Assembly: GCA_964448205.1 (NCBI GenBank)
Contig: CAYUVU010000129.1
Location: 1-50,862 of the forward strand
DNA: 50,862 nt
Direction: 5' to 3'
Source: an uncultured Acidobacteriota bacterium
GTDB taxonomy: Bacteria; Acidobacteriota; Vicinamibacteria; Marinacidobacterales; Marinacidobacteraceae
In this document: in pieces, positions 551 through 45,809 of the stretch
How the letters are laid out: every line of letters starts with the position of its first letter
Position numbering within the stretch: the stretch's first letter is position 1
Notes under the pieces: generated by a model
The model's database searches: none
What the model was told of the DNA's origin: nothing
Seen by the model: the letters and a program-made list of their open reading frames with translations, nothing else
Program-made: the position numbers and the translations under genes

Positions 551-1393
551 TCATTCGCCGCGGTCCCCGGGACGGAGGCGCCGCTGCACCCAGGTCGTCA
601 GGCCGTCGCTGTAGTCGAGGTCCGCCACTTGGGGTTCCGCTGGACGCGGCGCGAGCCGCAGGGTCATTTCGAGCCGGCTGACCGCGTGGGGGTCCTGCGG
701 TCCGCGGGGCGGTGGATACCGCGCCTCGGCCGTGAGCACCGCGCGGTCGTGCGGCGCTCCGGCATCCCGGGCGCCCACCACCGGCCGCCGAATCCAGACG
801 GTGACCCCGGCGATGTCCGGGATGCCGTCGCCATCGAGGTCCGGCGCCCACGCGGCGGTCGGAGCCCGCGGGTCGAACAGCAGCGGGCGGCCGCCGACGT
901 CGCGCAGCACCCGGCCCACGTAGACGCGGGCGTTGTTACCCGCCATCGGCTCATCCCGGAACACCTCGTAGTCGCGGCAGCCCGGCGCCGCGGGGTCGCC
1001 GCAGGCGGCGCCGTCCGGAGGGCGGGCCCATCCCCGCGCGTCCCCCCCGGGGGCGTGGATCGAGGGGCGGACCGGCGGGAGAGCCCTCTCGAAGCTGCCG
1101 TGCGCCTCGACGTGGGCGGCGAGCACGACCTTGGCCAGCTCCAGCCCGGCCTCGGCCCGGGCCGCCGCCCCTGCCGTCCAGGCCTGGTTCCGCGCCGTCG
1201 CGCCGTCGGACCCCACCGACATCAGCACGACCGCCCCGATACCGGCAAGCGCCGCCACCAGCAGGAGCGCCAGGACGAGCGCCATTCCCCGCTCCGGCGA
1301 CCCCTTCGGGGCCCCCGCCGGAAGCGCGCCCGCGCTATTCACGGTTCGCCACCCGGATTGAGTCCAGCCGGACGACGGAACCCCGGCCGCCAC
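551..1393 (-). CDS. PilX-type pilus assembly / minor pilin-like protein
   Basis: ...KGSPERGMALVLALLLVAALAGIGAVVLMS matches the PilX N-terminal pattern: (Q/E)RG followed by a hydrophobic helix. A GTG start at 1393 keeps the ERG motif but overlaps the upstream gene by 59 nt. The alternative ATG at 1285 avoids the overlap. Confidence 0.6.
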   Translation of the reverse strand: MAAGVPSSGWTQSGWRTVNSAGALPAGAPKGSPERGMALVLALLLVAALAGIGAVVLMSVGSDGATARNQAWTAGAAARAEAGLELAKVVLAAHVEAHGSFERALPPVRPSIHAPGGDARGWARPPDGAACGDPAAPGCRDYEVFRDEPMAGNNARVYVGRVLRDVGGRPLLFDPRAPTAAWAPDLDGDGIPDIAGVTVWIRRPVVGARDAGAPHDRAVLTAEARYPPPRGPQDPHAVSRLEMTLRLAPRPAEPQVADLDYSDGLTTWVQRRLRPGDRGE

Positions 1394-1850
1394 CGACCGG
1401 CATCGCCACCACCTCGATGCGAAGCGCGGCGAGCCGGTCCCCGCCTCGCGGGGCGAGTTCCCGGATCCGCCAACGCACTTCGTAGCGCGCGGAACGGGGG
1501 TCAGCGGACTCCCCGTCCTCGTCGAAGTACGCGAAGTAGCCGGGCGCTCCGGCGCCTTCGATCTCGACCGTGCCGCCCGGGGCGGCCGCGGCGTGATATC
1601 CCGGCCAGGGCCAGCCTCGCCAGAAGGGCGCCGCCATCAGTTGCTCCATCCGCGCGCGGGCGATTCCCGCGGCGAGACCGGTATCGGCGGCGGCCTGGCG
1701 GGCCTGGGACGCCTGGGCCAGGGCGCGCACAAGCCCGCCGGCGGCGACGACCAGCACCAGGACGGCGAAGAGGGTCTCGACGAGCGAGAACCCGCCGTCG
1801 CCCGGCGTCCGCAGAGCCGGCCGGCTGGCGGTGTTCTGGTCCATGTCCAT
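1335..1850 (-). CDS. Type IV minor pilin / pseudopilin (PilV-like) with prepilin cleavage-methylation motif
   Basis: MDMDQNTASRPALRTPGDGG|FSLVETLFAVLVLVV is a class III signal peptide (G/FxxxE) followed by a hydrophobic helix. Length 171 aa. Confidence 0.75.
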   Translation of the reverse strand: MDMDQNTASRPALRTPGDGGFSLVETLFAVLVLVVAAGGLVRALAQASQARQAAADTGLAAGIARARMEQLMAAPFWRGWPWPGYHAAAAPGGTVEIEGAGAPGYFAYFDEDGESADPRSARYEVRWRIRELAPRGGDRLAALRIEVVAMPVGGGRGSVVRLDSIRVANRE

Positions 1851-1865
1851 GCTCTACACGGGGAC

Positions 1866-1926
1866 AGACGTAAAACGCCCCGATTTCTTCCCACTTTGGA
1901 GCCGAATGTGGAAAAGTCGAAGCGAA
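1866..1926 (-). repeat. Copy A of a 61-nt conserved block located 5' of T4P operons (candidate shared promoter/operator or 5' RNA element)
   Basis: Gap-free manual alignment with 19742..19802 gives 50/61 identical positions. Gene-strand sequence: TTCGCTTCGACTTTTCCACATTCGGCTCCAAAGTGGGAAGAAATCGGGGCGTTTTACGTCT. The block ends 15 nt before the ATG at 1850. Confidence 0.6.
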
Positions 1927-2018
1927 CGTGCACAAGGGGCCTGAATTTCCCGGCCCAAACCGCAGAAAACGCCGCGCGACCCCCACCCGCTCCCACCCTT
2001 GCGGGGGCGGCGGCCGGC

Positions 2019-2780
2019 TCAGACCCCCGTCGAGACCAGGAAGACGGCGCCCGCGCCCAGCGCGAGCAGGGTGCCGAACGGCAGCGGGGTGTCGCGCCGG
2101 ATTCGCCCGAGGAGCAGCAGCGGCCCGGCCACCAGCACTCCAAGCGCGGCGGCGAGGGCCACCGCGCCCAGCGCGGGCGCCGGACCCAGAAAGGCCCCGA
2201 TCAGCAGCAGCAGCTTCACGTCGCCGAGCCCGACCGCCTCGACCCCACGGAACCGCAACCAGAGCGCGCGGAGCAGGAAGAGCAGGCCGGCCCCGACCAG
2301 GGCGCCCGCGGCCGAGGTCAGGAGATCCAGATCGGACCGGGGCCCCGCGAGCGCGAGGCCCAGCACCGCCCCGGGAAGGGTGAGCGCGTCCGGCAGCACC
2401 ATCCGCTCCCAGTCGGTCACCGCCAGCGCCAGCAGGAGGCTCAGGAGCAGCACCCGGGAGACGGCGAGCGCGGGGTCCCCTCCCTCCGGCGCCCACCAGA
2501 AGAGCACCCCGGTCAGCAGTTCCACCAGCGGATAGCGCACCGGGATCCAGGCCCGGCAGTCCCGGCAGCGGCCCCCGAGCCGGAGCCAGGAGATCACCGG
2601 CAGGTTGTCCCGGACGCGGATCGGCGCGGCGCACACGGGGCATCGGGAACCCGGAAGGAACACCGATTCCCCCGCCGGGAGACGATGGATCACGACGTTC
2701 AGGAAGCTCCCGGCCGCGAGCCCGGCCACGAACAGCGCGAGAGGGAGCAACGGCCCGGAGAAGACCGTGTCAGGCGCCAT
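2019..2780 (-). CDS. pilD: Prepilin peptidase / N-methyltransferase (A24 family)
   Basis: CPVC...CRDC zinc-binding pairs are present. It is a multi-pass membrane protein with the GLGDVKLL motif. It is the last gene of the pilA unit. Confidence 0.9.
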   Translation of the reverse strand: MAPDTVFSGPLLPLALFVAGLAAGSFLNVVIHRLPAGESVFLPGSRCPVCAAPIRVRDNLPVISWLRLGGRCRDCRAWIPVRYPLVELLTGVLFWWAPEGGDPALAVSRVLLLSLLLALAVTDWERMVLPDALTLPGAVLGLALAGPRSDLDLLTSAAGALVGAGLLFLLRALWLRFRGVEAVGLGDVKLLLLIGAFLGPAPALGAVALAAALGVLVAGPLLLLGRIRRDTPLPFGTLLALGAGAVFLVSTGV

Positions 2781-2786
2781 TGCCGG

Positions 2787-3686
2787 TCAGCGCCCCGGAT
2801 GGCCGGCCAGCGGCGACTCGGGAGCGATTCCGGGAACTCCGTCCCGGCCCAGCCCGAAGGGCACCCCTGCCGGGTCGACCGGCGGGCCCGGCAGCAACCC
2901 GGCGGCGACCAGGTCTTCCCAGCCGCGGGGAGGTTGTCCCGAGCGGCGTTCGTAGGCGCGCACGACGGAGCCGAGTTCATCCAGCCGGTCGAGCGCCTCG
3001 AGCTGGAGCAGATGGGTGCGGGCGTTGGACCGCGCCCGTTCATCGTCCGCGCGTTCCAGCAGGACGCGCCAGAGCTCCCGCGCGGCGGCGCGGGCCCCGA
3101 CGCCCGTCAGGGATCGCGCCGCCACCGCCACGACCCAGGGCGGCGCGTCGTCCCGGGCGCTCGCCGCCTCCAGCAGGGTTGCGCCGGTCTCGGGATCCTC
3201 GAGATGCCAGGTGTGCAACAGGCTGCGGACCAGCACCGCGTCGAAGTCGCCGGGGTGCCGCCGCACCCAGCCGGCGAGAATGGCGTCGGCCCGCTCGGGT
3301 TCGCCGGCGCCGAGCGGAGGCGGTTCCGCGAGCAGCAACGCCCCCACGAGCGCGGCCGGGCGGAGACCCGGGTCGAGGCGCAGCGCCTGCTCCACGAGGG
3401 CGCCGAGGCCGGGGAAGCCGGACGAACCCTCGAGCCGCCGGTTCCCGTAGTGCTGGACGGCGAGAAACCACGAAATGTCGGCCACCAGACGCCGAACTGC
3501 GGAAGGGAGTGCCGCGACCCCCGCATCGCTGAGGTGGATCCCCGGAGGCAGGACGATGATCTCCGGTCCCGGCCGCGCCGCGGGCGCGACCCGCGCAGCC
3601 ATCCCGAGACACGCGAGCGACAGCGCGGCACCGGCGAGACGGCCGGCGCCGACGCCGCGGAAACCGGCCCGCCGGGGGTCCCGCAT
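2787..3686 (-). CDS. Hypothetical secreted alpha-helical protein (T4P-operon associated)
   Basis: The track ORF 2787..4304 was trimmed to ATG 3686, which lies 8 nt after the permease stop at 3695. The N-terminus MRDPRRAGFRGVGAGRLAGAALSLACLGMAARVA looks like a signal peptide. The rest is Leu/Ala/Arg-rich and helical. I recognise no family motif. Confidence 0.55.
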   Translation of the reverse strand: MRDPRRAGFRGVGAGRLAGAALSLACLGMAARVAPAARPGPEIIVLPPGIHLSDAGVAALPSAVRRLVADISWFLAVQHYGNRRLEGSSGFPGLGALVEQALRLDPGLRPAALVGALLLAEPPPLGAGEPERADAILAGWVRRHPGDFDAVLVRSLLHTWHLEDPETGATLLEAASARDDAPPWVVAVAARSLTGVGARAAARELWRVLLERADDERARSNARTHLLQLEALDRLDELGSVVRAYERRSGQPPRGWEDLVAAGLLPGPPVDPAGVPFGLGRDGVPGIAPESPLAGHPGR

Positions 3687-3694
3687 CCGCCCGC

Positions 3695-4471
3695 TCAGGA
3701 AGCCGGCGCCGCGGGCTGGCGGGCCCGCCACGGGAACACGGCGATCGCGGCGGCGACCATCGCGGCCGTGTACAGGAGTGCATGGGCGGTGGGGCCCACG
3801 AGCAGCGGCCCCACCTCGGAGAAGCTCCCGGGGAGGCCCCCCAGCGGCGCATCGAGCGCCGGGAGGTCCGGCAGGACGAACGTCGCGAGCCGGGTCACCG
3901 GCCCGAGGTAGGCGGGACCCGCAGCGGGAAAACCCGCCGCCAGCCATCCGGCCAGCGAGAAGAGCGCCGCAGGCACGATGGCCGCGGCTGGGCGGACGAG
4001 CGCCAGAAACAGCGTGGACACGGCGAGGATCACCAGCAGCCGCAGCCACAACAGCCAACCGGTCCCGAGCACCGCCGCCGTCGCCCCGCCGTGCGCGAGG
4101 ACAAGCCATGCCGAGAGCGTGGCGGTCACCAGCGCCACGTAGACGAACAGGCCGGCCGCTAGGCCGAGGAAGCGTCCGCCGAGCAGGAGGCCGGCGGAGA
4201 CCGGTCTCGCCAGCGCGAAGGAGCCGAGAACCCCGCGGCTGCCGGCGAGCCCCGCTCCGTGGACCAGGGCCATCGACCATCCGGCCACTTCGGCCAGAAC
4301 CCATGCCACGTTGGACTCGAAACGCCCCTCCCGGCCGAGCGACACGTCACCCAGCAGCACCCCGGCGCCGAAACCCGCGAGAACCAGCGCGAGAGCGGCC
4401 AGCAGGCTCCGCTCGGCGAGGAATCCGCGCAGCGCCACGGCGGCGGTAGCCGTGAGGGGAGCGACCGGCAC
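3695..4471 (-). CDS. ABC-2 type transporter permease
   Basis: About six hydrophobic segments. GTG start lies 6 nt after the stop of the ABC ATPase gene. High GC3. Confidence 0.65.
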   Translation of the reverse strand: MPVAPLTATAAVALRGFLAERSLLAALALVLAGFGAGVLLGDVSLGREGRFESNVAWVLAEVAGWSMALVHGAGLAGSRGVLGSFALARPVSAGLLLGGRFLGLAAGLFVYVALVTATLSAWLVLAHGGATAAVLGTGWLLWLRLLVILAVSTLFLALVRPAAAIVPAALFSLAGWLAAGFPAAGPAYLGPVTRLATFVLPDLPALDAPLGGLPGSFSEVGPLLVGPTAHALLYTAAMVAAAIAVFPWRARQPAAPAS

Positions 4472-4477
4472 CGGTGG

Positions 4478-5254
4478 TTACCGGACCGGGGGGCTCGCGC
4501 CGTTCAGCGCCGCCGCCAGCCAGCCGCCGCTCTGTCCGGGAGCGGACCGGTCCCGGCCGCCCTTCGCCACGAAGTCTCCCACCGGCCCGGCCGCGGCGAC
4601 GGCCCCATCCGCCAGGACGATCAGCCGGTCCGCGACCGACTCGATGGCGGCGGCCTCGTGAAGACTGAGGATGACGGCCGCTCCCTCCCGGGCCGCGGAG
4701 CGAATGGCCGCGAGGGAGCCGACCCGGGCCTCCGGGTCGAGTCCGGTGAGCGGTTCGTCCAGAACGAGCGCCAGGGGCTCGCCGAGCAGCGCCTGCGCCA
4801 GGGACACCCGACGCCGGACACCCCGCGAAGCGCGGCCGGCGGGGACCGCGAGCCACTCCGCCACCCCCACGGTCTTCGCCGTTCGCTCCGCCTCCCGACG
4901 AGCCCCGGCGCCGCGGTATCCGGCGAGCACCGCGGCGTAGCGCAGGGTGTCCCGCACGCTGAGACCCGCCGGAAACTCGTCCTCCTCCGCCACGTATCCC
5001 AGACGGCGGCGCGCCTCGCTGCGGGTGGCCGGCAGCTCTCCCAGCAGGGCGTCGCCCCGATCGGCGGGCAGGAGTCCGGCCAGCAGCCGCAGCGTGGTCG
5101 ACTTTCCCGAGCCGTTCTTCCCGGCGAGAGCCACCACCTCACCCGGCGCGACCGCGAAGCTGACTTCCCGGACGACCGTCCGGCGGCGGAGCGCCAGCCC
5201 GGAACGCCCGGCCGCCGGATAGGAAGCGCTCAGCTCGCGGGCGCGGATCTCCAC
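4478..5254 (-). CDS. ABC transporter ATP-binding protein
   Basis: Walker A is GKNGSGKST. Signature and Walker B lie in the region RRRVSLAQALLGEPLALVLDEPLTGLD. GTG start lies 18 nt after the pilA stop. Confidence 0.9.
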   Translation of the reverse strand: MEIRARELSASYPAAGRSGLALRRRTVVREVSFAVAPGEVVALAGKNGSGKSTTLRLLAGLLPADRGDALLGELPATRSEARRRLGYVAEEDEFPAGLSVRDTLRYAAVLAGYRGAGARREAERTAKTVGVAEWLAVPAGRASRGVRRRVSLAQALLGEPLALVLDEPLTGLDPEARVGSLAAIRSAAREGAAVILSLHEAAAIESVADRLIVLADGAVAAAGPVGDFVAKGGRDRSAPGQSGGWLAAALNGASPPVR

Positions 5255-8332: not shown

Positions 8333-8344
8333 ACCAAGAGGGTC

Positions 8345-8373
8345 AGACGAGATTTCCGCCCAATTCCGGTCAA
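8345..8373 (-). promoter_or_regulatory. Candidate pilT promoter (TTGACC-N17-TCGTCT)
   Basis: The rc of 8368..8373 is TTGACC and the rc of 8345..8350 is TCGTCT, with a 17-nt spacer. The -10 is poor. The CGTCTG element resembles the 3' end of the 61-nt blocks. Confidence 0.25.
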
Positions 8374-8598
8374 AGTTGTTCGGGAGCGAAGAAAGGGAGG
8401 CTGGCGGCCCGGAGGTTGCTTGCCTCCCAGGCCCGATCCGAAGCGGGCCGTGAGAAGCCGTACCTCGTGCAGATCGCTCAGTGGCTCGGCTGCGGATCCG
8501 ATGCCGAACAAGGCTGACTCGCGGCCCGCGGACCGCTCCTGCCGCACCGGCGCTTCGGGCGGCCCCGTGGCGCGGCGTCAGCCTGCCCCGGTGGGCTC

Positions 8599-13201: not shown

Positions 13202-14536
<1,335 letters not shown>

Positions 14537-14572
14537 GTCAGCGGCCTGTGAACAGCGTCACGCGGCGCCCGT

Positions 14573-15034
14573 TCAGGCTGGCCGGATCGCGAAGAGCCGG
14601 TCGCCGAACTGGACCGCGGAGCCGTCCTCGGGGAGGATCTCGACGACCTCCCCGCTGTGCTCGGCCTCGATGTTGTTCATCAGCTTCATCGCCTCGATGA
14701 TGCAGAGCACCTGCCCCTTGCGGACGCGGTCTCCCACGCTGACGAACGGCTCCGCGTCCGGCCGCGGACGACGGTAGAAGGTCCCCACCATCGGTGCGGT
14801 CACGGTCTCCAGGCCGGACGCGGCCGCGTCCGCCGATCCATCGTCAACGGGCGCCGGGGGAGCGGCCACCGGGGCCGGGACAGCGGCGGCAACCGTTGCC
14901 GCCGGCCCGCGGGCGACGCGCAGACGGGCTCCGCCGACGCGGAGATCGACCTCGTGGAACTCCGTTCCGGCGAGCTGGTCCAGAGCTCCGAGCAGATCGG
15001 CGAGAGTGGGCTCTTTGGACGAAGATGCGGGCAC
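14573..15034 (-). CDS. accB: Biotin carboxyl carrier protein
   Basis: CIIEAMKLMNNIEA biotinylation motif, with an Ala/Pro linker. GTG start. Confidence 0.9.
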   Translation of the reverse strand: MPASSSKEPTLADLLGALDQLAGTEFHEVDLRVGGARLRVARGPAATVAAAVPAPVAAPPAPVDDGSADAAASGLETVTAPMVGTFYRRPRPDAEPFVSVGDRVRKGQVLCIIEAMKLMNNIEAEHSGEVVEILPEDGSAVQFGDRLFAIRPA

Positions 15035-15138: not shown

Positions 15139-16914
15139 TCAGGGCGCCGGCCGGGACCCGTTGGCGGCGCGGATTCGCGGGGTGAGGAAGATGAGCAGTT
15201 CCTCATCCCGGTGGTTCCGCTCGCGCGACCGGAACAGGTGTCCCAGGAGGGGAATCCGGTGCAGGCCGGGAACCCGGCCGCGGTCCTGCGACTGCTGGCT
15301 GGCGAAGACGCCTCCCAGGACCGTCGTCGCCCCGTCGTCGACCCGGACCCGGGTCGTCGCCTGCTGGGTCAGGATGCTCGGGATGCCTCCCACCGCCTGA
15401 CCGAAGTCGAGCGCGTCGTTGCTGACCGTCAGATCGAGCAGGATCGTCCCTTCGGGACTGACCTGCGGCGTCACCGTGAGTTCGAGCACCGCGTCCCGGA
15501 ACTGCACCGTGACCGTGTTGTTGGCCACCACCTGGACCGGGAAGGTCACGCCCTGCTTGATCGTCGCGGGCCGCGCGTTCTGGGCGACGATCCGGGGAGC
15601 CGACAGGATCCTCACCTCACCCCGGCGTTCGGCGGCGCTCAGGGCCAGATCGAGATGGGCGGCGCCGTTCAGGGCTCCCAGCGCAAGCCCCAGCGCCCCG
15701 GCGGGAGCCCCGCTGATGGGGAGGTTGACGCCGTAGCCCCGCCGCTCGCCGTCCTGGTTCGCGGCGGCCGCCACTCCCCCGGCCGGCGCGCCGGTCGAAA
15801 ACGACGAGGTGGCGCCCCCGATGGCGTCCGCTCCGATGCGTACGGACTGCGGCAGCTTCTTGCCCGTGTGTTCGCGCACCAGTCCCCCGCCCCACTGGAT
15901 TCCCAGCCGGCTGGTCAGCGTTCGCGTCGCCAGCACGATGCGCGCCTCGATCTCCACGCCCGGTACCGGAATGTCGAGCAGGTCCAGCACCGACTCGATC
16001 TCGCGGACCCGGCTCTCCACGTCCGCCACCAGAACGGTCCCGGTGCGTTGATCGGCGATGAGGGAACCCCGCTCGCTCAGGCGGCTTTCGAGCATCTCCT
16101 TCACCTCCTCCGGACGCACGAACGCCAGGCTGCGGCTGAACGTCATCAGTTCACCGGCCAGTTCCCGCGCTTCCCGCTGCCGCCGCCGCTCGTCGATCTC
16201 GGCCGCCAGTTCGTCCGCCGGACCCACCCGTAGCACCCCGTCCTCGAGCGCGTGCCCGAGCCGCTGGGACCGGAGGATCAGCTCGAGCGCCTGTTCCCAG
16301 GGAATCTCGCTCAGCCGCAGGGAAACGCGGCCGGCGACGCCGGGTTGCAGCACGAAGTCGAGCCCGCTCACCTCGCTCAGGATGCGGAGGACGTCCCGGA
16401 GGTCCGCGTCCCGAAAATCGAGGCTGACCCGTGGTCCGGCCCCGGGCTCGGCGGGAACGTCCGGTTCGTCTTCTCCGGATGGCGCGGGCGGGGCCCGGCA
16501 GGCGACCTCCAGACCGCCTTCGAACAGGGAAGGCGTGCAGGTGACCCCCGGGGCGGCGACCACCTCGATGCCCTCGCTTCCGTCGGCGGAAACCCGCACC
16601 TCCAGGACTTCCGCGCTTCCCGTCCCCCAGGACCCCGCCACCGCCGAGAGATCGACACCGGGCATCACCACCCGGAACCGGTCCCGCAACGGCGCATCCG
16701 CCGGAGCGCTCAGTTTCCCGTCCGCGGTCAGCCGGAGAACGGTTGCCCCGGGGCCCGGATCCACCTCCAACGCGGTGACCGCCGGCCGGGACGCGGTCAC
16801 CAGGACCTGCGGGGGCTGGGACCCGGCCGCGGCGACCGGACGGGCCGGCGAGGCCGCGAGAACGGCGAGGACGCCGACGCAGGCGCTCCCCGCGAGCTTC
16901 TTCACTGGTTGCAT
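15139..16914 (-). CDS. pilQ: Type IV pilus secretin
   Basis: Signal peptide MQPVKKLAGSACVGVLAVLAA, an AMIN-like N-terminus, and a secretin C-terminus (...ILSAPRIVAQN...VPGLHRIPLLGHLFRS). The track ORF 15139..17448 was trimmed to ATG 16914, which overlaps the pilP stop (ATGA). Confidence 0.9.
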   Translation of the reverse strand: MQPVKKLAGSACVGVLAVLAASPARPVAAAGSQPPQVLVTASRPAVTALEVDPGPGATVLRLTADGKLSAPADAPLRDRFRVVMPGVDLSAVAGSWGTGSAEVLEVRVSADGSEGIEVVAAPGVTCTPSLFEGGLEVACRAPPAPSGEDEPDVPAEPGAGPRVSLDFRDADLRDVLRILSEVSGLDFVLQPGVAGRVSLRLSEIPWEQALELILRSQRLGHALEDGVLRVGPADELAAEIDERRRQREARELAGELMTFSRSLAFVRPEEVKEMLESRLSERGSLIADQRTGTVLVADVESRVREIESVLDLLDIPVPGVEIEARIVLATRTLTSRLGIQWGGGLVREHTGKKLPQSVRIGADAIGGATSSFSTGAPAGGVAAAANQDGERRGYGVNLPISGAPAGALGLALGALNGAAHLDLALSAAERRGEVRILSAPRIVAQNARPATIKQGVTFPVQVVANNTVTVQFRDAVLELTVTPQVSPEGTILLDLTVSNDALDFGQAVGGIPSILTQQATTRVRVDDGATTVLGGVFASQQSQDRGRVPGLHRIPLLGHLFRSRERNHRDEELLIFLTPRIRAANGSRPAP

Positions 16915-17363
16915 CACTCCTCCTCGGGAGCCGCCGGCTGCGCGAGCGGCCGATGGACGGGGCGGTCCGGATCGCCCGCCAGCCAGAAGACGACGCCATC
17001 CGCATCGATCCGCCCCACAACCCCGTCCAGCAGGCGAGCGCCGGGCGCCGCGACGAATCCCTCGCCGGTGGGGGACTCGAGAATCGCCCAGCCCGGCGAA
17101 CCGGGGCCGGCCTCGGGACGCGGACGGGTCCGGAGCCTCACGACGCCCCGAACCACGGCTTCGGTCACCCCGATACCGGCAAGCCCCGGCAATCGCGGCG
17201 CCGCGGGTCCGGCCCCCGACGCGCGGAACGGATCGCGCACCGATTGCGGCTCCCCCTGCTGCCCCGCCGGGAGAAGCCGGGCGCCGGTCGCGGCCGCCTG
17301 CCCGAGTCCGACGAATCCGGCCGCCACGAGGAACACCGCGCCCCCTGAACATCCACGCATCAT
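16914..17363 (-). CDS. pilP: PilP-like pilus assembly protein
   Basis: 149 aa with a signal/lipoprotein-like N-terminus (MMRGCSGGAVFLVAAG). It sits between pilO and pilQ. The ATG overlaps the pilO stop (ATGA). The call rests mainly on position. Confidence 0.6.
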   Translation of the reverse strand: MMRGCSGGAVFLVAAGFVGLGQAAATGARLLPAGQQGEPQSVRDPFRASGAGPAAPRLPGLAGIGVTEAVVRGVVRLRTRPRPEAGPGSPGWAILESPTGEGFVAAPGARLLDGVVGRIDADGVVFWLAGDPDRPVHRPLAQPAAPEEE

Positions 17364-17968
17364 CGCGCTGCACTCCCGGGCGGCGGCTCCTCCGGCCCGG
17401 CCCCGCCGGTGACGGAATCCTCCACCGCCCGCATGGTGACCGCGACAAAGCGACACTGGAGGAGATCGCCGGGCGTCCGTTCGAACGCCACCTCTTCCAT
17501 CAGGACCAGGTGCGGCGACAACGAGACCGCGTCGAAGAAACCAAGGAAATCGACGAATGCGCCCTCGGCGACGATCGACACGGCGCTCGCGAGGTATCCG
17601 TCCAGTCGGTACCCGGGCTCGGGCGCAAACCGCAGGAACCGGATTCCCGCCGCCGAGGCGGCCGCACCGAGCGACTCCAGGACGGCCTCCGACTCGCCGG
17701 CGGTGGCCAGGGTCCCGCGAAGCGCCGCGACGCGCTCCCCGACGCCCCTCAGTTCCCCGGCAAGGACGGCGGCCTCCCCGGCATCCGGCCCCGACGGCGC
17801 GTCCCTCCCCGCAGAGGCCGGCGTCGCCAACCGGGCCAACTCTTCCTCGACCCGCTGCGCTTCCCCGACGATCCCCGGCCGCACCCCGAATCGATACCCC
17901 GCGCAGGCAGCGGCGACCACCGCCAGGACCGACCCGGCGCCCGCCCACCGGAACGCGCGGCGCCTCAC
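17360..17968 (-). CDS. pilO: PilO-like pilus assembly protein
   Basis: 202 aa with one N-terminal TM segment (WAGAGSVLAVVAAACAGY), then a coiled segment and an alpha/beta domain. The GTG start overlaps the pilN stop (GTGA). The call rests on position and architecture. Confidence 0.6.
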   Translation of the reverse strand: MRRRAFRWAGAGSVLAVVAAACAGYRFGVRPGIVGEAQRVEEELARLATPASAGRDAPSGPDAGEAAVLAGELRGVGERVAALRGTLATAGESEAVLESLGAAASAAGIRFLRFAPEPGYRLDGYLASAVSIVAEGAFVDFLGFFDAVSLSPHLVLMEEVAFERTPGDLLQCRFVAVTMRAVEDSVTGGAGPEEPPPGSAAR

Positions 17969-18585
17969 CGGGACCTCTCGACGTGCCCGGGCAGCACTTC
18001 GATCCGCTCGAAGGGCTCCGGTTCCCGGGACTCGTAGCGGAGCGATCCGGCAAACGCGAATCGCTGTTCCGCGGAGCCCGCCGCCTCGCCGGCCCGCTCG
18101 ACCCAGAGCAGCTCCAGTCCCTCGGTCCTCTCGATCTTCCCGAAGGCATCCAGCGTTCTGGCGACCACTTCGGCCGAATCCGCCCGTCCGCTCACCCGAA
18201 GCTCCGAACCGTTCCGGCGCACCGCATCGAGGATCGCGGCGTCCGGGATCGCGGCCCCCAGCGCCCGGAGCAGTTCGGGGAGCAAAGACCGCTCCTCGTC
18301 CCAGCGGGCGAGGCGGGCTTCCTCGATCCGCAGCCGCCGGAGCCGGTCGCGGTCCCGCACGAGCCGTTCTTCGAGGCCGCGGCGTTCGGCCGCCAGGACC
18401 CGCAGGCGGTCCCGCTCGGTGCGCGCGGCCTCCAGACGCGTGGTGAGGAAGCGGACGTCCAGTCCCACGCCCGCCAGCGCGAGGCCGACGAGGAACACGC
18501 CACCCACTGCCCGAACGCGCCCCGGGACACCAGCGCGCCCGGCGCTCCGCCGGGACCGCGGGGCGTCCGCGGGCAGGAGGTTCAT
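17965..18585 (-). CDS. pilN: PilN-like pilus assembly protein
   Basis: MNLLPAD... conserved N-terminal peptide, a single TM segment (VGGVFLVGLALAGV) and a coiled coil. The ATG overlaps the pilM stop (ATGA). Confidence 0.65.
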   Translation of the reverse strand: MNLLPADAPRSRRSAGRAGVPGRVRAVGGVFLVGLALAGVGLDVRFLTTRLEAARTERDRLRVLAAERRGLEERLVRDRDRLRRLRIEEARLARWDEERSLLPELLRALGAAIPDAAILDAVRRNGSELRVSGRADSAEVVARTLDAFGKIERTEGLELLWVERAGEAAGSAEQRFAFAGSLRYESREPEPFERIEVLPGHVERSR

Positions 18586-19733
18586 GAGCGGAGCCCCCTT
18601 CCCGGTCCCGACCGATCGAGGATCGTCTGGTAGGCGAGGCCGGCGGCCACCGAGTAGGCCGGCCCGCACACCGCGGGATCGAGCCCCCCCAGCGGATCGA
18701 GCACCGCCGGCGCTCCTGGCGTGAACTCCTCGAGGCACCCGCAAACCGCCGGAGAAACGGCGCCGCCACCACTGAGCAGCAACCGGTCTACCTGCCCCAG
18801 CCCCGCCTCCCGGAACGCCTCCCGGGCAGCTGCCGCAACGCGGTGGTGAACGGCCTCCGTGCCGTCGCCGGGGCCCCCCTGCCACCGGGCCGGCGCCTGG
18901 CTCCCGGGAGGCCCCGGCGTGACCCCGGACTCCACGCCCGGTGGGGCTCCATCCACCGCCGGCGCCCCGGCGCCAAGTGCGGGAACGCTCGCGAGCAGGT
19001 CGGCCGGGACGCCCGCCCGCGCCTCGAGAGCCGCGGCCCGGTCGCGGATCGCGGGACCGTCCGGGCGCGCGTTCCCGAAGACGTGGACTCCGGAGCGGGA
19101 GGCTCCGATCTCCACGATCGCCAGCGCGCCGGAATCCCGATCCACTCCGGCAAGGCGGTCGGCCAGCCCCACCGCCGCGTGGAGTGCGTAGGGCTCGAGT
19201 TCGATCCGGGTCGCCTCCCGGCCCGCGGCTACGGCGGCCCGGCAGTGTGCGAGGACGACCTCGCGCGGCGCAGCGCCGAAGACGACCGCCGCCAGGCCCT
19301 CCCCCGCCGCCTCCCGGGCGACCGGCAGCGGGCCCTCGTAGTCGAACTCGAGGGATTCGAGATGGAACGGCACGTGGCGGGCCGCTTCCCGGGCGACCGC
19401 GTCGCGGAGACCCCCCGGCGTGCTCCCGGTCGCAACCGCTTCGGGAGGCACCGGAAACCTCTTGACGAGGACCGAACCGCCTCCGATGGCGAGGGTCAGC
19501 ACCCGGCACCGCACCCGTAGCGTGGCAAGGAGCCGTCCGAGCGCCGCGCCGACGGCGCCGGCGTCGCGCACCGCGCCGTCCCGCAGCGTTCCCGGCGCGA
19601 CCGGCTCGATTCCGGCCCCCAGAACCGTCAACTCTCCGCGATCCGCGGAGAGGGCGACCACCTTGACTCCGGAATATCCGAAATCGACTCCGACCGCGTG
19701 AAGCGGGCGTCTCCAATTGACGAAACGGCGCAC
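18582..19733 (-). CDS. pilM: Actin-like ATPase PilM
   Basis: VGVDFGYSGVKVVAL N-terminal phosphate-1 motif. Length 383 aa. GTG start. Confidence 0.85.
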   Translation of the reverse strand: MRRFVNWRRPLHAVGVDFGYSGVKVVALSADRGELTVLGAGIEPVAPGTLRDGAVRDAGAVGAALGRLLATLRVRCRVLTLAIGGGSVLVKRFPVPPEAVATGSTPGGLRDAVAREAARHVPFHLESLEFDYEGPLPVAREAAGEGLAAVVFGAAPREVVLAHCRAAVAAGREATRIELEPYALHAAVGLADRLAGVDRDSGALAIVEIGASRSGVHVFGNARPDGPAIRDRAAALEARAGVPADLLASVPALGAGAPAVDGAPPGVESGVTPGPPGSQAPARWQGGPGDGTEAVHHRVAAAAREAFREAGLGQVDRLLLSGGGAVSPAVCGCLEEFTPGAPAVLDPLGGLDPAVCGPAYSVAAGLAYQTILDRSGPGRGLRS

Positions 19734-19741
19734 CCTTCCCT

Positions 19742-19802
19742 AGACGTAAAACGCGCCGAAAAATTCCCACCACGGACCGAAATGTGGAAAAGTCGAAGCG
19801 AA
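19742..19802 (-). repeat. Copy B of the 61-nt conserved block, 5' of pilM
   Basis: Gene-strand sequence: TTCGCTTCGACTTTTCCACATTTCGGTCCGTGGTGGGAATTTTTCGGCGCGTTTTACGTCT. The block ends 8 nt before the pilM GTG. Confidence 0.6.
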
Positions 19803-19812
19803 GCGGCATAAC

Positions 19813-19833
19813 GGGGCCCTTCGACGGGGCCCC
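19813..19833 (-). terminator. GC-rich hairpin after the metalloprotease gene
   Basis: GGGGCCC-N7-GGGCCCC gives a 7-bp stem, 11 nt after the stop at 19845. There is no clear U-tract. A weaker GGGCC-N10-GGCCC hairpin (1937..1956) occupies the equivalent place next to copy A. Confidence 0.35.
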
Positions 19834-19844
19834 TCGCCGCCGCT

Positions 19845-21035
19845 TCAGGGCGAAGGCGTCTCGGACTCCTCTGCTTCCGCCGGGCGCGGAAGAAGACCGC
19901 AGCGCACCGGCCAGTCTTCGGAAGGAATGACCGGAAGCGGAGGATTCGCACCGGCGAGCCGGGGCCCGGCCATCGAGGCGGGTTCCCAGAACTCGCTGGC
20001 CGCGGTGTCAGGACAGTCGGCCCGCCCGTGCCCGAAGTAGTTGTCGCGGCCCGGGTCGATGGCCACCTCGTCGTGCCCGCCCCATTCGGGCCCGGCATAC
20101 AGGAGGTCCTCGACGCGCGTCCCCACGTGCGCGCTGGTCTCCAGCCGGTCGGGAGCGCACCCCGGCACCGCGCCGAAGACGTGCAGCAGTTCGTGCACCA
20201 TCACTGCCTCGTAGGTGGAGGCCGTCTCCCGATCGCCTCCCACCGGCCGCGGGCTGCACCCCTCCGCGTGCACGAAAGCGACGGCGACCCGGCCCTCCGC
20301 GGCGGCGCTGCCGCAGAGATCCCCGGAACGGCCGGCGTAGTAGACCGCATACGCCTTGCCGGACGACGCTCCGAACCGGTCCCGGATCGCGTTTTCGAGG
20401 GCTTCGACCAGCGAGGCGCCCCCTTCCTCGCCCTCCTGGGCCGTGAAGGGCAGGCGCAGGAACGTCACGTCGAGCCTGCCCCCGGCGGTGTCGAGCCGGA
20501 GGCGCTGGCCGATCTCGCCCTCCAGCCAGCGCTGGAGCGCGTCGAACGACCTCTCGATGTCGCCGTGGCGGTCCAGGTCTCCATCCTCCGCGTCGCTCGG
20601 GAGCGCATAGACGACATGGACCTGTGGACCCGCCAGGTCGTCCGGCTGGTCCCGGTCGTGCCGCGGGTTGGGTTCCAGCACCTCGAGCTCCAGCGAGTCC
20701 CCGAACTCCTCGAACGACGCCGAGACGGTGGCGCGTCCCACGGCGACGCCGGTCAGCGTTCCGTCCTCCGCCACCTCCACGACCGAGGGGTCCGACGACG
20801 TCCACGCGCTCTCCACGACTCCCGTCGTGCCGTCGTCGTAGCGGCCGTACGCGAGCGCCGGCCCGGTCACCTGGCCGACCCGGAGATCGTCCCGCGCCAG
20901 CGTGACCTCGAGGCCCCGCAGCTCCTTCGGGGAAACCCGGGGCGTGCCCGGGGTGACCGGGGTCTGATTGCCCTCGCCGCCGCCGCAGGCCAGACCCAGC
21001 AGCATCAGGGGTGCGGCCCACCGGGTCGGACTCAT
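19845..21035 (-). CDS. Putative zinc metallopeptidase lipoprotein with bacterial Ig-like (Big_2-like) domain
   Basis: LMLLGLACGG lipobox. SSDPSVVEVAEDGTLTGVAVGRATVSASF is Big_2-like. HELLHVFG is an HExxH motif. The start was set to ATG 21035 to avoid overlap with tag. Confidence 0.7.
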   Translation of the reverse strand: MSPTRWAAPLMLLGLACGGGEGNQTPVTPGTPRVSPKELRGLEVTLARDDLRVGQVTGPALAYGRYDDGTTGVVESAWTSSDPSVVEVAEDGTLTGVAVGRATVSASFEEFGDSLELEVLEPNPRHDRDQPDDLAGPQVHVVYALPSDAEDGDLDRHGDIERSFDALQRWLEGEIGQRLRLDTAGGRLDVTFLRLPFTAQEGEEGGASLVEALENAIRDRFGASSGKAYAVYYAGRSGDLCGSAAAEGRVAVAFVHAEGCSPRPVGGDRETASTYEAVMVHELLHVFGAVPGCAPDRLETSAHVGTRVEDLLYAGPEWGGHDEVAIDPGRDNYFGHGRADCPDTAASEFWEPASMAGPRLAGANPPLPVIPSEDWPVRCGLLPRPAEAEESETPSP

Positions 21036-44826: not shown

Positions 44827-45396
44827 ATGACATCACCGGCTGAGACCCGCGGATCGGGCCGGTTCCTGCTTCGAATGCCGCCGACCCTGCACGACACCCT
44901 CCGCTCCGCGGCGCGGGCGGCGGGGCTGTCGCTCAACGAGTACTGCGTGCGGCGGCTCGTCACCGGCAGTGTCGTCCACGAGAATGCCGCGGTGCTCGTT
45001 TCCCGGGCCGCCGCGGTGGTGGGAGACGCGCTCGCCGCCGTGGTGCTGCACGGATCCTGGGTTCGCGGTGACGCCGGCTCCGGGTCCGATGTCGACGCGG
45101 TGATCGTGATCGACCGGACCGTGCCGCTTCGCCGTTCGCTCTACCGCAAGTGGGACGAGCAGTCCGTCACCTGGAGCCATCGTCCAGTGGATCCCCATTT
45201 TGTCCACCTTCCCGCGGACGCGAGACTGAGTGGGCTCTGGGCCGAGATCGCGACCCACGGATTGATCGTTTTCGACCGCGACGGTGACCTCGGGGCCTGT
45301 CTGGCCCGGGTTCGCGGGGCGATCGCCGACGGCCGGCTGCGCCGCCGGACAGCGCACGGCCAGCCCTACTGGACCGAAGCGCCAGCGTTCCCGTGA
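44827..45396 (+). CDS. RHH (HicB/CopG-like) DNA-binding domain fused to minimal nucleotidyltransferase (MNT-type antitoxin)
   Basis: GRFLLRMPPTLHDTLRSAARAAGLSLNEYCVRRL has a ribbon-helix-helix pattern. HGSWVRGDAGSGSDVDAVIV carries the GS...DxD pol-beta NTase motif. Confidence 0.8.
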   Translation: MTSPAETRGSGRFLLRMPPTLHDTLRSAARAAGLSLNEYCVRRLVTGSVVHENAAVLVSRAAAVVGDALAAVVLHGSWVRGDAGSGSDVDAVIVIDRTVPLRRSLYRKWDEQSVTWSHRPVDPHFVHLPADARLSGLWAEIATHGLIVFDRDGDLGACLARVRGAIADGRLRRRTAHGQPYWTEAPAFP

Positions 45397-45809
45397 TGCG
45401 AAACCGGACCCTCGCCGACGACCATTTGCGCCGCGCCAGGGCCCGGCTCACCGCACTGGATGCGCTGTATGACGCGGAGAGTTGGGCCGATGTCGTCCGC
45501 GAGTCCCAGGAAACCGTCGAGTTGGCGCTCAAGGGCCTGCTACGCGCCTGTGGGGTGGACCCCCCGCGAGTCCACGACGTGGCGGGCGTGCTCGAGGCCG
45601 AACGTGACCGGCTTCCGGCAACGCTGATTCCCGACCTGCCGCGCCTTGCCGCCGCCTCCCGCGCCCTGCGGCGGGATCGGGAACTCGCGTTCTACGGCGC
45701 CGAGGATCTGACCCCATCGGAGTTCTACCGCCGGGAAGATGCCGCCGAGGCCCGCGCTGCCGCACGCTTCGTGGTCGAGCGCGTGGCCCCCCAGGTGCTT
45801 GGCGGGTAG
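45393..45809 (+). CDS. HEPN domain protein (toxin partner of MNT)
   Basis: All-helical 138 aa with ...VELALKGLL...HDV...RELAFYG..., resembling HEPN proteins paired with MNTs. The start overlaps the MNT stop (GTGATG; either GTG 45393 or ATG 45396). Confidence 0.75.
   Translation: MMRNRTLADDHLRRARARLTALDALYDAESWADVVRESQETVELALKGLLRACGVDPPRVHDVAGVLEAERDRLPATLIPDLPRLAAASRALRRDRELAFYGAEDLTPSEFYRREDAAEARAAARFVVERVAPQVLGG

Follow-up and report, generated by a model that had tools for sequence, protein, structure and literature searches.

A 61-nt block that precedes two type IV pilus operons in the 50,862-nt stretch of Acidobacteriota DNA analysed here (the window) belongs to a family whose copies are most likely three-part promoters of marine, largely sponge-associated Acidobacteria. 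Regulon-specific promoters are a familiar kind of element, of which the block is most likely an undescribed example; its obligatory long upstream box is unusual. It most likely marks a regulon and not a pilus-only switch, because most of its targets in the closest clade are small coiled-coil proteins. The Acidobacteria that carry it are known from metagenome-assembled genomes alone, many of them from sponges, and we found no published account of gene regulation in them. Full-text literature searches on the box sequences, and on ECF promoters together with pilus genes, likewise returned no description of the motif. The earlier note on this DNA, which did not recognise the block as a described motif, is borne out to the extent that the box sequences are absent from the searchable literature.

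Two related blocks precede pilus operons in the window

Pairwise alignment of the two segments, 19802..19742 and 1926..1866, both on the minus strand, gave gap-free identity at 50 of 61 positions, reproducing the manual alignment of the earlier note, and extra matches (CCCnTTnTGC) lie just 5' of the aligned 61 nt. Exactly two matches exist in the 50.9-kb window for the 22-nt box TTCGCTTCGACTTTTCCACATT, and as many for the 13-nt box GCGTTTTACGTCT, all on the minus strand; two matches to either box occurred in 0 of 100 shuffles. An nhmmer search with the family profile found no third copy in the window. The proposal that the block is shared only by these two flanks is therefore correct inside the window and fails across genomes, where the block is a dispersed family.

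The copy before pilM contains three boxes on the minus strand. Box1 (19781..19802, about -68 to -47) is the exact 22-mer, with weaker conservation 6-9 nt further 5' (19803..19811). Box2 (19759..19770) reads GT-GGGAA-TTTTT, with GGGAA at 19768..19764, a -35-like element followed by a T tract. Box3 (19742..19746) is CGTCT, a -10-like element 17 nt after GGGAA, so that GGGAA...CGTC spans 19743..19768. The copy before the minor pilins, also on the minus strand, has the exact 22-mer as Box1 at 1905..1926, GT-GGGAA-GAAA as Box2 at 1884..1894 (GGGAA at 1892..1888) and CGTCT as Box3 at 1866..1870. As had been claimed, the first block ends 8 nt before the pilM GTG (19733) and the second 15 nt before the first ATG of the pilV-like gene (1850). 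An alternative in-frame ATG of the latter at 1844, 21 nt from the block, is the start chosen by gene callers in a 93%-identical relative (169 aa vs 171 aa).

The pilM copy heads a pilM-pilN-pilO-(pilP-like)-pilQ operon (15139..19733, minus strand) defined by gene calls and by Pfam matches to PilM_2, PilN, PilO and Secretin. An exact-sequence look-up of the window PilM gave no database record. Upstream lies a Big_2 lipoprotein-like gene (Pfam; 19845..21005), and after its stop codon the GC-rich hairpin that had been noticed there is present on the minus strand at 19843..19803, with a folding energy of -28 kcal/mol and z = -2.72. This hairpin is likely a terminator or insulator ahead of the promoter, and further hairpins are found between pilD and the minor-pilin copy of the block. 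The second copy precedes the pilV-like minor-pilin gene (1335..1850, minus strand), whose N_methyl Pfam match is weak, followed by another minor-pilin gene (551..1342, minus strand; gene calls). In relatives this operon runs on into a PilY1-like gene (T4P_PilY1, weak Pfam matches). By Pfam, pilD lies 5' of the minor-pilin copy, with pilT, pilC and pilA further upstream, and matches to prepilin peptidase, T2SSF and T2SSE were also obtained in the window.

The pilT-pilC-pilA-ABC-pilD cluster was considered as a further target and rejected. The region upstream of pilT (window positions 8340-8400, minus strand) has the sequence CTTCGCT...TTGACC-N17-TCGTCT, in which fragments of the motif recur without its architecture; thus pilT, pilC, pilA and pilD are not under the block here. 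Other features of the window were recorded in passing. Two ORFs between pilA and pilD (3695-5254) resemble an ABC ATPase and a membrane protein. Behind pilQ, on the same strand and separated by short gaps, lie ORFs that resemble accB and accC, as judged by N-terminal sequence only (13202-15034), and, as judged by eye, two adjoining small ORFs on the plus strand (44875-45809) resemble a nucleotidyltransferase (MNT)/HEPN toxin-antitoxin pair.

The block is a three-box unit found across related Acidobacteria

A pattern search of the window and of related genomes, with the following genes tabulated as the earlier note had suggested, returned 62 exact copies and recurrent gene classes. These 62 occurrences of the exact 22-mer come from the window and 12 MAG assemblies (classified as Acidobacteria, Vicinamibacteria or 'Ca. 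Marinacidobacterium'), in which 57 loci carry it and each genome has between 1 and 10 copies. Relaxing the pattern added about 24 variant members from metagenomes, and viral contigs contained no copy of the exact 22-mer.

Box1 can be written as (GCAY)-cTTSRC-N3-GACTTTTCCACA. The earlier view that the 22-nt distal box is invariant applies to the closest clade; relatives vary in its 5' third, which reads CTTCAC, CTTGAC or CTTCGC. The invariance within the clade is itself partly a selection effect, because most copies were found by searching for the exact 22-mer. Box2 consists of RY-GGGAA and four or five A/T. GGGAA is invariant or nearly so across the 62 copies, the two bases before it are GT in 26, AC in 16, GC in 15 and AT in 5, and the base after it is A in 40, G in 15, T in 7 and C in none. 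Distant orthologues carry GGGAC, GAGAA, GGGCA or GGGAT in its place. Box3 is WTT-N-CGTCT; within CGTC, the C, G and final C are present in 62/62 copies and the T in 61/62 (CGCC once).

The distances between the boxes are nearly fixed. Of 75 unique copies, 69 have 15 nt between CCAC of Box1 and GGGAA and the other 6 have 26 nt; between GGGAA and CGTC, 71 have 17 nt and 4 have 16 nt. The difference between the 15- and 26-nt spacers is 11 bp, about one helical turn. Between the boxes, aligned copies vary freely in sequence. In the 722 kb of DNA examined, all 79 matches to the Box2/Box3 pattern have Box1 upstream; the three boxes form one unit. Copies before pilM always carry GGGAATTTTT and a T tract, those before pilins carry GGGAAGAAAT, and orthologous copies are more similar to each other than paralogous copies are.

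Genes downstream of the block

With the exception of a class next to rsmD, each copy faces the next ORF, at a distance of 8 to about 120 nt from CGTCT to the start codon. The downstream proteins (n = 80) were clustered and Pfam was run on representatives. The largest group, 49 of the 80, consists of small coiled-coil proteins of about 100-250 aa that form one loose family with weak matches to CCDC90-like/DUF1640 or DUF948. Minor pilins follow 8 copies (clustering, with a weak N_methyl match), pilM follows 5 (PilM_2) and a further 3 that are cut off by locus ends, and pilB follows 5 (T2SSE and MshEN). Two copies precede comM (ChlI, Mg_chelatase and Mg_chelatase_C), and six, located between rsmD and coaD, run antisense into rsmD. 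The proposal of a dedicated element of the pilus regulon is thus upheld in part: the block is a conserved cis-regulatory element of both pilus operons, and it is not dedicated to them, as most copies precede small coiled-coil proteins and others precede comM or run antisense into rsmD.

The small proteins share a Pro-rich N-terminus, a conserved helix (LFxALLxAG...AYTA) and a variable number of tandem coiled-coil repeats, and most end in a C-terminal membrane helix. Their genes often stand in arrays (L005, L010, L032, L044), and up to eight of them per genome are preceded by the block. The family has only 77 relatives in 5.8 billion proteins, all unnamed or hypothetical, and is a lineage-specific expansion. 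We also observed that leaders of these genes, 50-120 nt long, open with a conserved hairpin, GGAGGACGCCGCGTCCTCC (L010 1395-1440, L005 2100-2140 and many others), in which an SD-like sequence is paired with its complement; the real SD (AGGAG) comes after it. This hairpin may be a layer of translational control.

The two comM genes (ComM/YifB family) have an ATG exactly 8 nt after CGTCT, the geometry seen at pilM. As both copies have a variant Box1 and come solely from two redundant metagenome contigs (L067 5479-5551, minus strand, and L090), membership of comM is not established for the window's own clade. The rsmD class comprises six orthologous copies with the 26-nt spacer (L011 4728-5463; L008, L017, L023, L028, L039). 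In these, CGTCTAG overlaps the rsmD stop codon and the predicted transcript would run antisense across the whole of rsmD, towards a gene of 370-402 aa without a Pfam match and a small coiled-coil gene. By analogy, this layout resembles an excludon.

The block is conserved before orthologous pilus operons

Orthologues of the two pilus operons were picked by protein similarity only, and the upstream DNA was inspected afterwards. For PilM at 55, 53, 52 and 45% identity, the three boxes and both spacings are kept, with the GTG exactly 8 nt after CGTCT, and the Box1 core CGA[CG]TTTTCCACA is retained in these protein-selected pilM loci (L096-L099). At 40% identity a degenerate form, TTTTCGACA-N14-GGGAT-N16-CGTCA, is found. 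The block is likewise kept before minor pilins at 69, 67, 63 and 60% identity (L101, L102, L103, L105), and only a trace of it is seen at 54%. The conservation in relatives on which the earlier note had staked its reading is therefore present, down to 45% identity at pilM and 60% at the minor-pilin/PilY1 operon. Neutral intergenic DNA at such protein distances would be randomised, and the spacers are indeed randomised at those distances. Since the boxes persist between randomised spacers, and since orthologous copies are the most alike, the sequence comparison points to vertical descent with purifying selection and away from a recent spread.

One of the distant pilM loci may bear on the order in which targets were acquired. 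In L099, three tandem CCDC90-like genes (1300-2900, minus strand) adjoin the block-bearing pilM operon and are divergent from it; they lack the block and share another upstream repeat, about 200 nt long. Because the CCDC90-like genes of this distant genome are without the block, the pilus operons may be its older targets. We also noted that many of the clade's PilM database entries (P0078, P0089, P0092-P0099) align to no more than about 93-94% of the window protein; this is consistent with a start called downstream of the GTG that lacks an SD.

A probable promoter with an ECF-like core

Taken on its sequence features, the block is probably a promoter, and we have moderate confidence in the fuller proposal that it is a regulon promoter with a core for an alternative, ECF-type sigma factor and an obligatory upstream site. 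That the sigma factor reading it is of the ECF type is, judged separately, an even proposition. According to the proposal, the cassette of about 70 bp would be complete, strand-specific and read as DNA. GGGAA with its A/T tract and CGTCT 17 nt further on would be the -35 and -10 elements of a sigma factor of ECF (group 4) type, and transcription would begin at the purine 9 nt after CGTCT. Box1, centred near -60, would be an obligatory site at which an activator binds or the holoenzyme makes an additional contact with DNA; the 11-bp spacing variant, a single evolutionary event, is what a class-I activator site or an upstream holoenzyme contact would tolerate. The cassette would co-regulate pilMNOPQ, the minor-pilin/PilY1 operon, pilB and comM; each genome of the closest clade would add several small coiled-coil proteins that are tail-anchored.

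Several observations bear on this proposal. The ECF-like geometry GGGAA-N17-CGTCT, pointed out from the two window copies, turned out to be the best-conserved feature of the family, and a CGT(C/T) -10 element at a fixed spacing, 16-17 nt from AAC, which serves as a criterion for ECF promoters, is found in nearly all copies (CGTC in 61/62; 17 nt in 71/75). The -35 element expected of such promoters contains GGAAC, and in the block GGGAA is followed by A, G or T. Downstream of CGTCT, 50/75 copies carry T at position 8 and 60/75 carry a purine at position 9, in DNA of about 72% G+C. Y(-1)R(+1) is the usual pattern of transcription start sites, and this conserved pyrimidine-purine step at +8/+9 fits the expectation that transcription starts almost at the start codon. 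In the minor-pilin copy the predicted start is 1857, a G with a T before it. In the pilM copy it coincides with the GTG start codon itself (19731..19733, minus strand), at +9 after CGTCT. The pilM GTG falls on position 9 in all readable loci, namely five with the exact 22-mer, the window included, and four selected by protein, and the N-terminal PilM peptide RRFxxWRRP is conserved in frame with it. Among the aligned copies, no conserved SD was found at the pilM and comM starts; the remaining targets have SD-like sequences in leaders that are 13 to about 120 nt long. As the start codons of pilM and comM lie at the predicted +1, their mRNAs are predicted to be leaderless.

Other sigma factors were also considered. 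A promoter and terminator scan found no sigma-70-type promoter at the pilM copy, and readings for sigma-54 (GG-N10-GC), sigma-28, SigH-type and sigma-70 promoters were rejected by eye, as the required positions are unconserved or the spacing is wrong. In the DNA examined, no sigma factor gene lies behind any copy of the block. A tblastn search of this DNA with RpoE and SigW found one ECF gene, near a copy (L030 5271..5810), and its upstream sequence is unrelated and free of the motif. ECF sigma genes are usually autoregulated and usually accompanied by an anti-sigma gene, and no ECF promoter is known to need an upstream box of 20-30 bp. The missing C of the canonical AAC, the sigma gene without the motif, the upstream box and the antisense rsmD copies count against a textbook ECF promoter. 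An undescribed promoter class, in which an ECF-like pair works only with an upstream box of 20-30 bp, is a possibility that we hold tentatively.

Alternative readings of the block

The earlier note had suggested that the inverted repeat TTTCCAC/GTGGGAA could act as an RNA hairpin. In such a case the block would be transcribed and would work as a 5'-leader hairpin, UUUCCAC/GUGGGAA, or as another cis-regulatory RNA. A 7-bp stem can be drawn, it extends in some copies such as that before the minor pilins, and the block is always 5' of a gene. However, RNAalifold found 0 consensus pairs over 50 distinct copies. Four pairs of the stem never vary, and the other three break in 4, 24 and 16 of the 50 copies without compensatory change. 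Folding energies are no better than those of shuffles (z = -0.46 to +1.20), Rfam gave no match at the gathering threshold over the whole window or at E <= 10 around the block, and no promoter was seen 5' of the block. A second stem, in which the spacer pairs with sequence 3' of the A tract, appeared credible in L001, L006 and L019, yet it failed a permutation test: native complementarity was -7.88 kcal/mol vs -8.10 kcal/mol for cross-paired segments, and 1538 of 2000 permutations were at least as good. The hairpin suggestion is thus not sustained, the block is unlikely to be an RNA element, and we give this alternative very little credence; TTTCC/GGGAA may still be an inverted repeat that is read as DNA. 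Equally improbable is a REP- or MITE-like dispersed repeat, or a site at which recombination shuffles or switches paralogous genes for small surface proteins, with an incidental link to the pilus. The many copies per genome, mostly before a multigene family with variable tandem repeats, and their occasional occurrence in arrays (L005, L010, L032) would fit it. Against this, exact copies number only 1 to 10 in a genome and face gene starts except in the rsmD class; terminal inverted repeats and target duplications are lacking; orthologous copies are more alike than paralogous ones (GGGAATTTTT in pilM, GGGAAGAAAT in pilin); the copies hold syntenic positions before single-copy operons across 45-69% protein identity; and the 22-mer is missing from viral contigs. 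A generic REP-like repeat, which had been named as the finding that would overturn the original reading, is not what these few, gene-oriented and syntenic copies represent.

An operator in place of a promoter core deserves more weight than either of these, although we consider it unlikely. Here a dimeric or multimeric factor would bind TTTTCCAC-N13-GTGGGAA, and possibly CGTCT too, and would activate or repress a promoter of the housekeeping sigma factor. The inverted repeat is present in all copies and its TTTCC/GGGAA part never varies, the half-sites of the rsmD class differ in spacing by about one helical turn, and Box1 exceeds a simple UP element in both length and conservation. However, there is no sigma-70-like -35/-10 pair in or beside the block, and the 8 nt between block and start codon at pilM and comM leave no room for a downstream promoter. 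In addition, the outer two bases (RY) of the 3' arm vary freely, the block has a strict direction relative to the gene, and the best-conserved element, CGTCT, has no symmetric partner.

Comparison with known systems

The closest parallel to the core comes from Streptomyces coelicolor, in which S1-mapped promoters of the ECF factor sigma-E have the form GGGAAC-N17-CGTCT (PMC6767563). The block resembles these promoters in GGGAA-N17-CGTCT, with a one-base tolerance, and in the A/T tract after the -35-like element. It differs in that the canonical C of the AAC is never present in the 62 copies and the spacer after GGGAA is one base shorter. Its regulon differs as well, being made up of pilus or competence machinery and small coiled-coil proteins and not of envelope stress genes. 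As in ECF promoters generally, the inferred start lies a few bases past CGTCT and the regulon spans multiple operons; unlike them, every copy seen comes with an upstream box of 20-30 bp, and no sigma gene bearing the motif was found.

The arrangement of Box1 recalls the CRP-S sites of Pasteurellaceae, Vibrionaceae and Enterobacteriaceae. These Sxy/TfoX-dependent sites of about 22 bp lie about 60 bp upstream of the start, are palindromes (TGCGA-N6-TCGCA) read by CRP with sigma-70, and are common to the com operon homologous to pilMNOPQ, pilin genes and comM. In both systems a single box of about 22 bp near -60 ties pilus machinery to comM. Box1, in contrast, has no dyad symmetry, and by eye its likeness to a CRP half-site is confined to CCACATT at the right end; the core promoter next to it is not sigma-70-like. 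Since Box1 is not a palindrome, it lacks the defining property of CRP-S. A second parallel is found in Pseudomonas aeruginosa, in which the ECF factor AlgU reportedly acts through the LytTR regulator AlgR to control the fimU-pilVWXY1Y2E minor-pilin operon. In both cases, as proposed for ours, a minor-pilin/PilY1 operon has its own activator-dependent promoter, tied to an ECF sigma circuit and separate from that of the major pilin. AlgR binds 9-bp sites of the CCGTTCGTC type, and pilMNOPQ of Pseudomonas is not under the same site. Unlike in that system, no AlgR-type repeat pair is evident in Box1.

Biological meaning

The motif of about 70 bp makes a regulon computable that covers pilus assembly, comM and a large family of membrane proteins, and it is a handle for tracing the sigma factor or activator responsible. 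It would introduce no new principle unless the reader of Box1 proves unusual. The block may help to correct PilM gene starts in databases. The predictions of start sites, including those for leaderless pilM and comM, are precise and testable with existing sponge metatranscriptomes. If the block does represent an undescribed promoter class, these bacteria would possess a sigma factor and an activator dedicated to it, or a sigma factor that reads DNA through an additional domain, and their regulon would take in leaderless pilM and comM together with an antisense, excludon-like arm over rsmD. It would also mean that pilMNOPQ, the minor pilins with PilY1, pilB and comM are wired together with an expanded family of tail-anchored coiled-coil proteins, a pattern that would point to a host-contact or competence programme.
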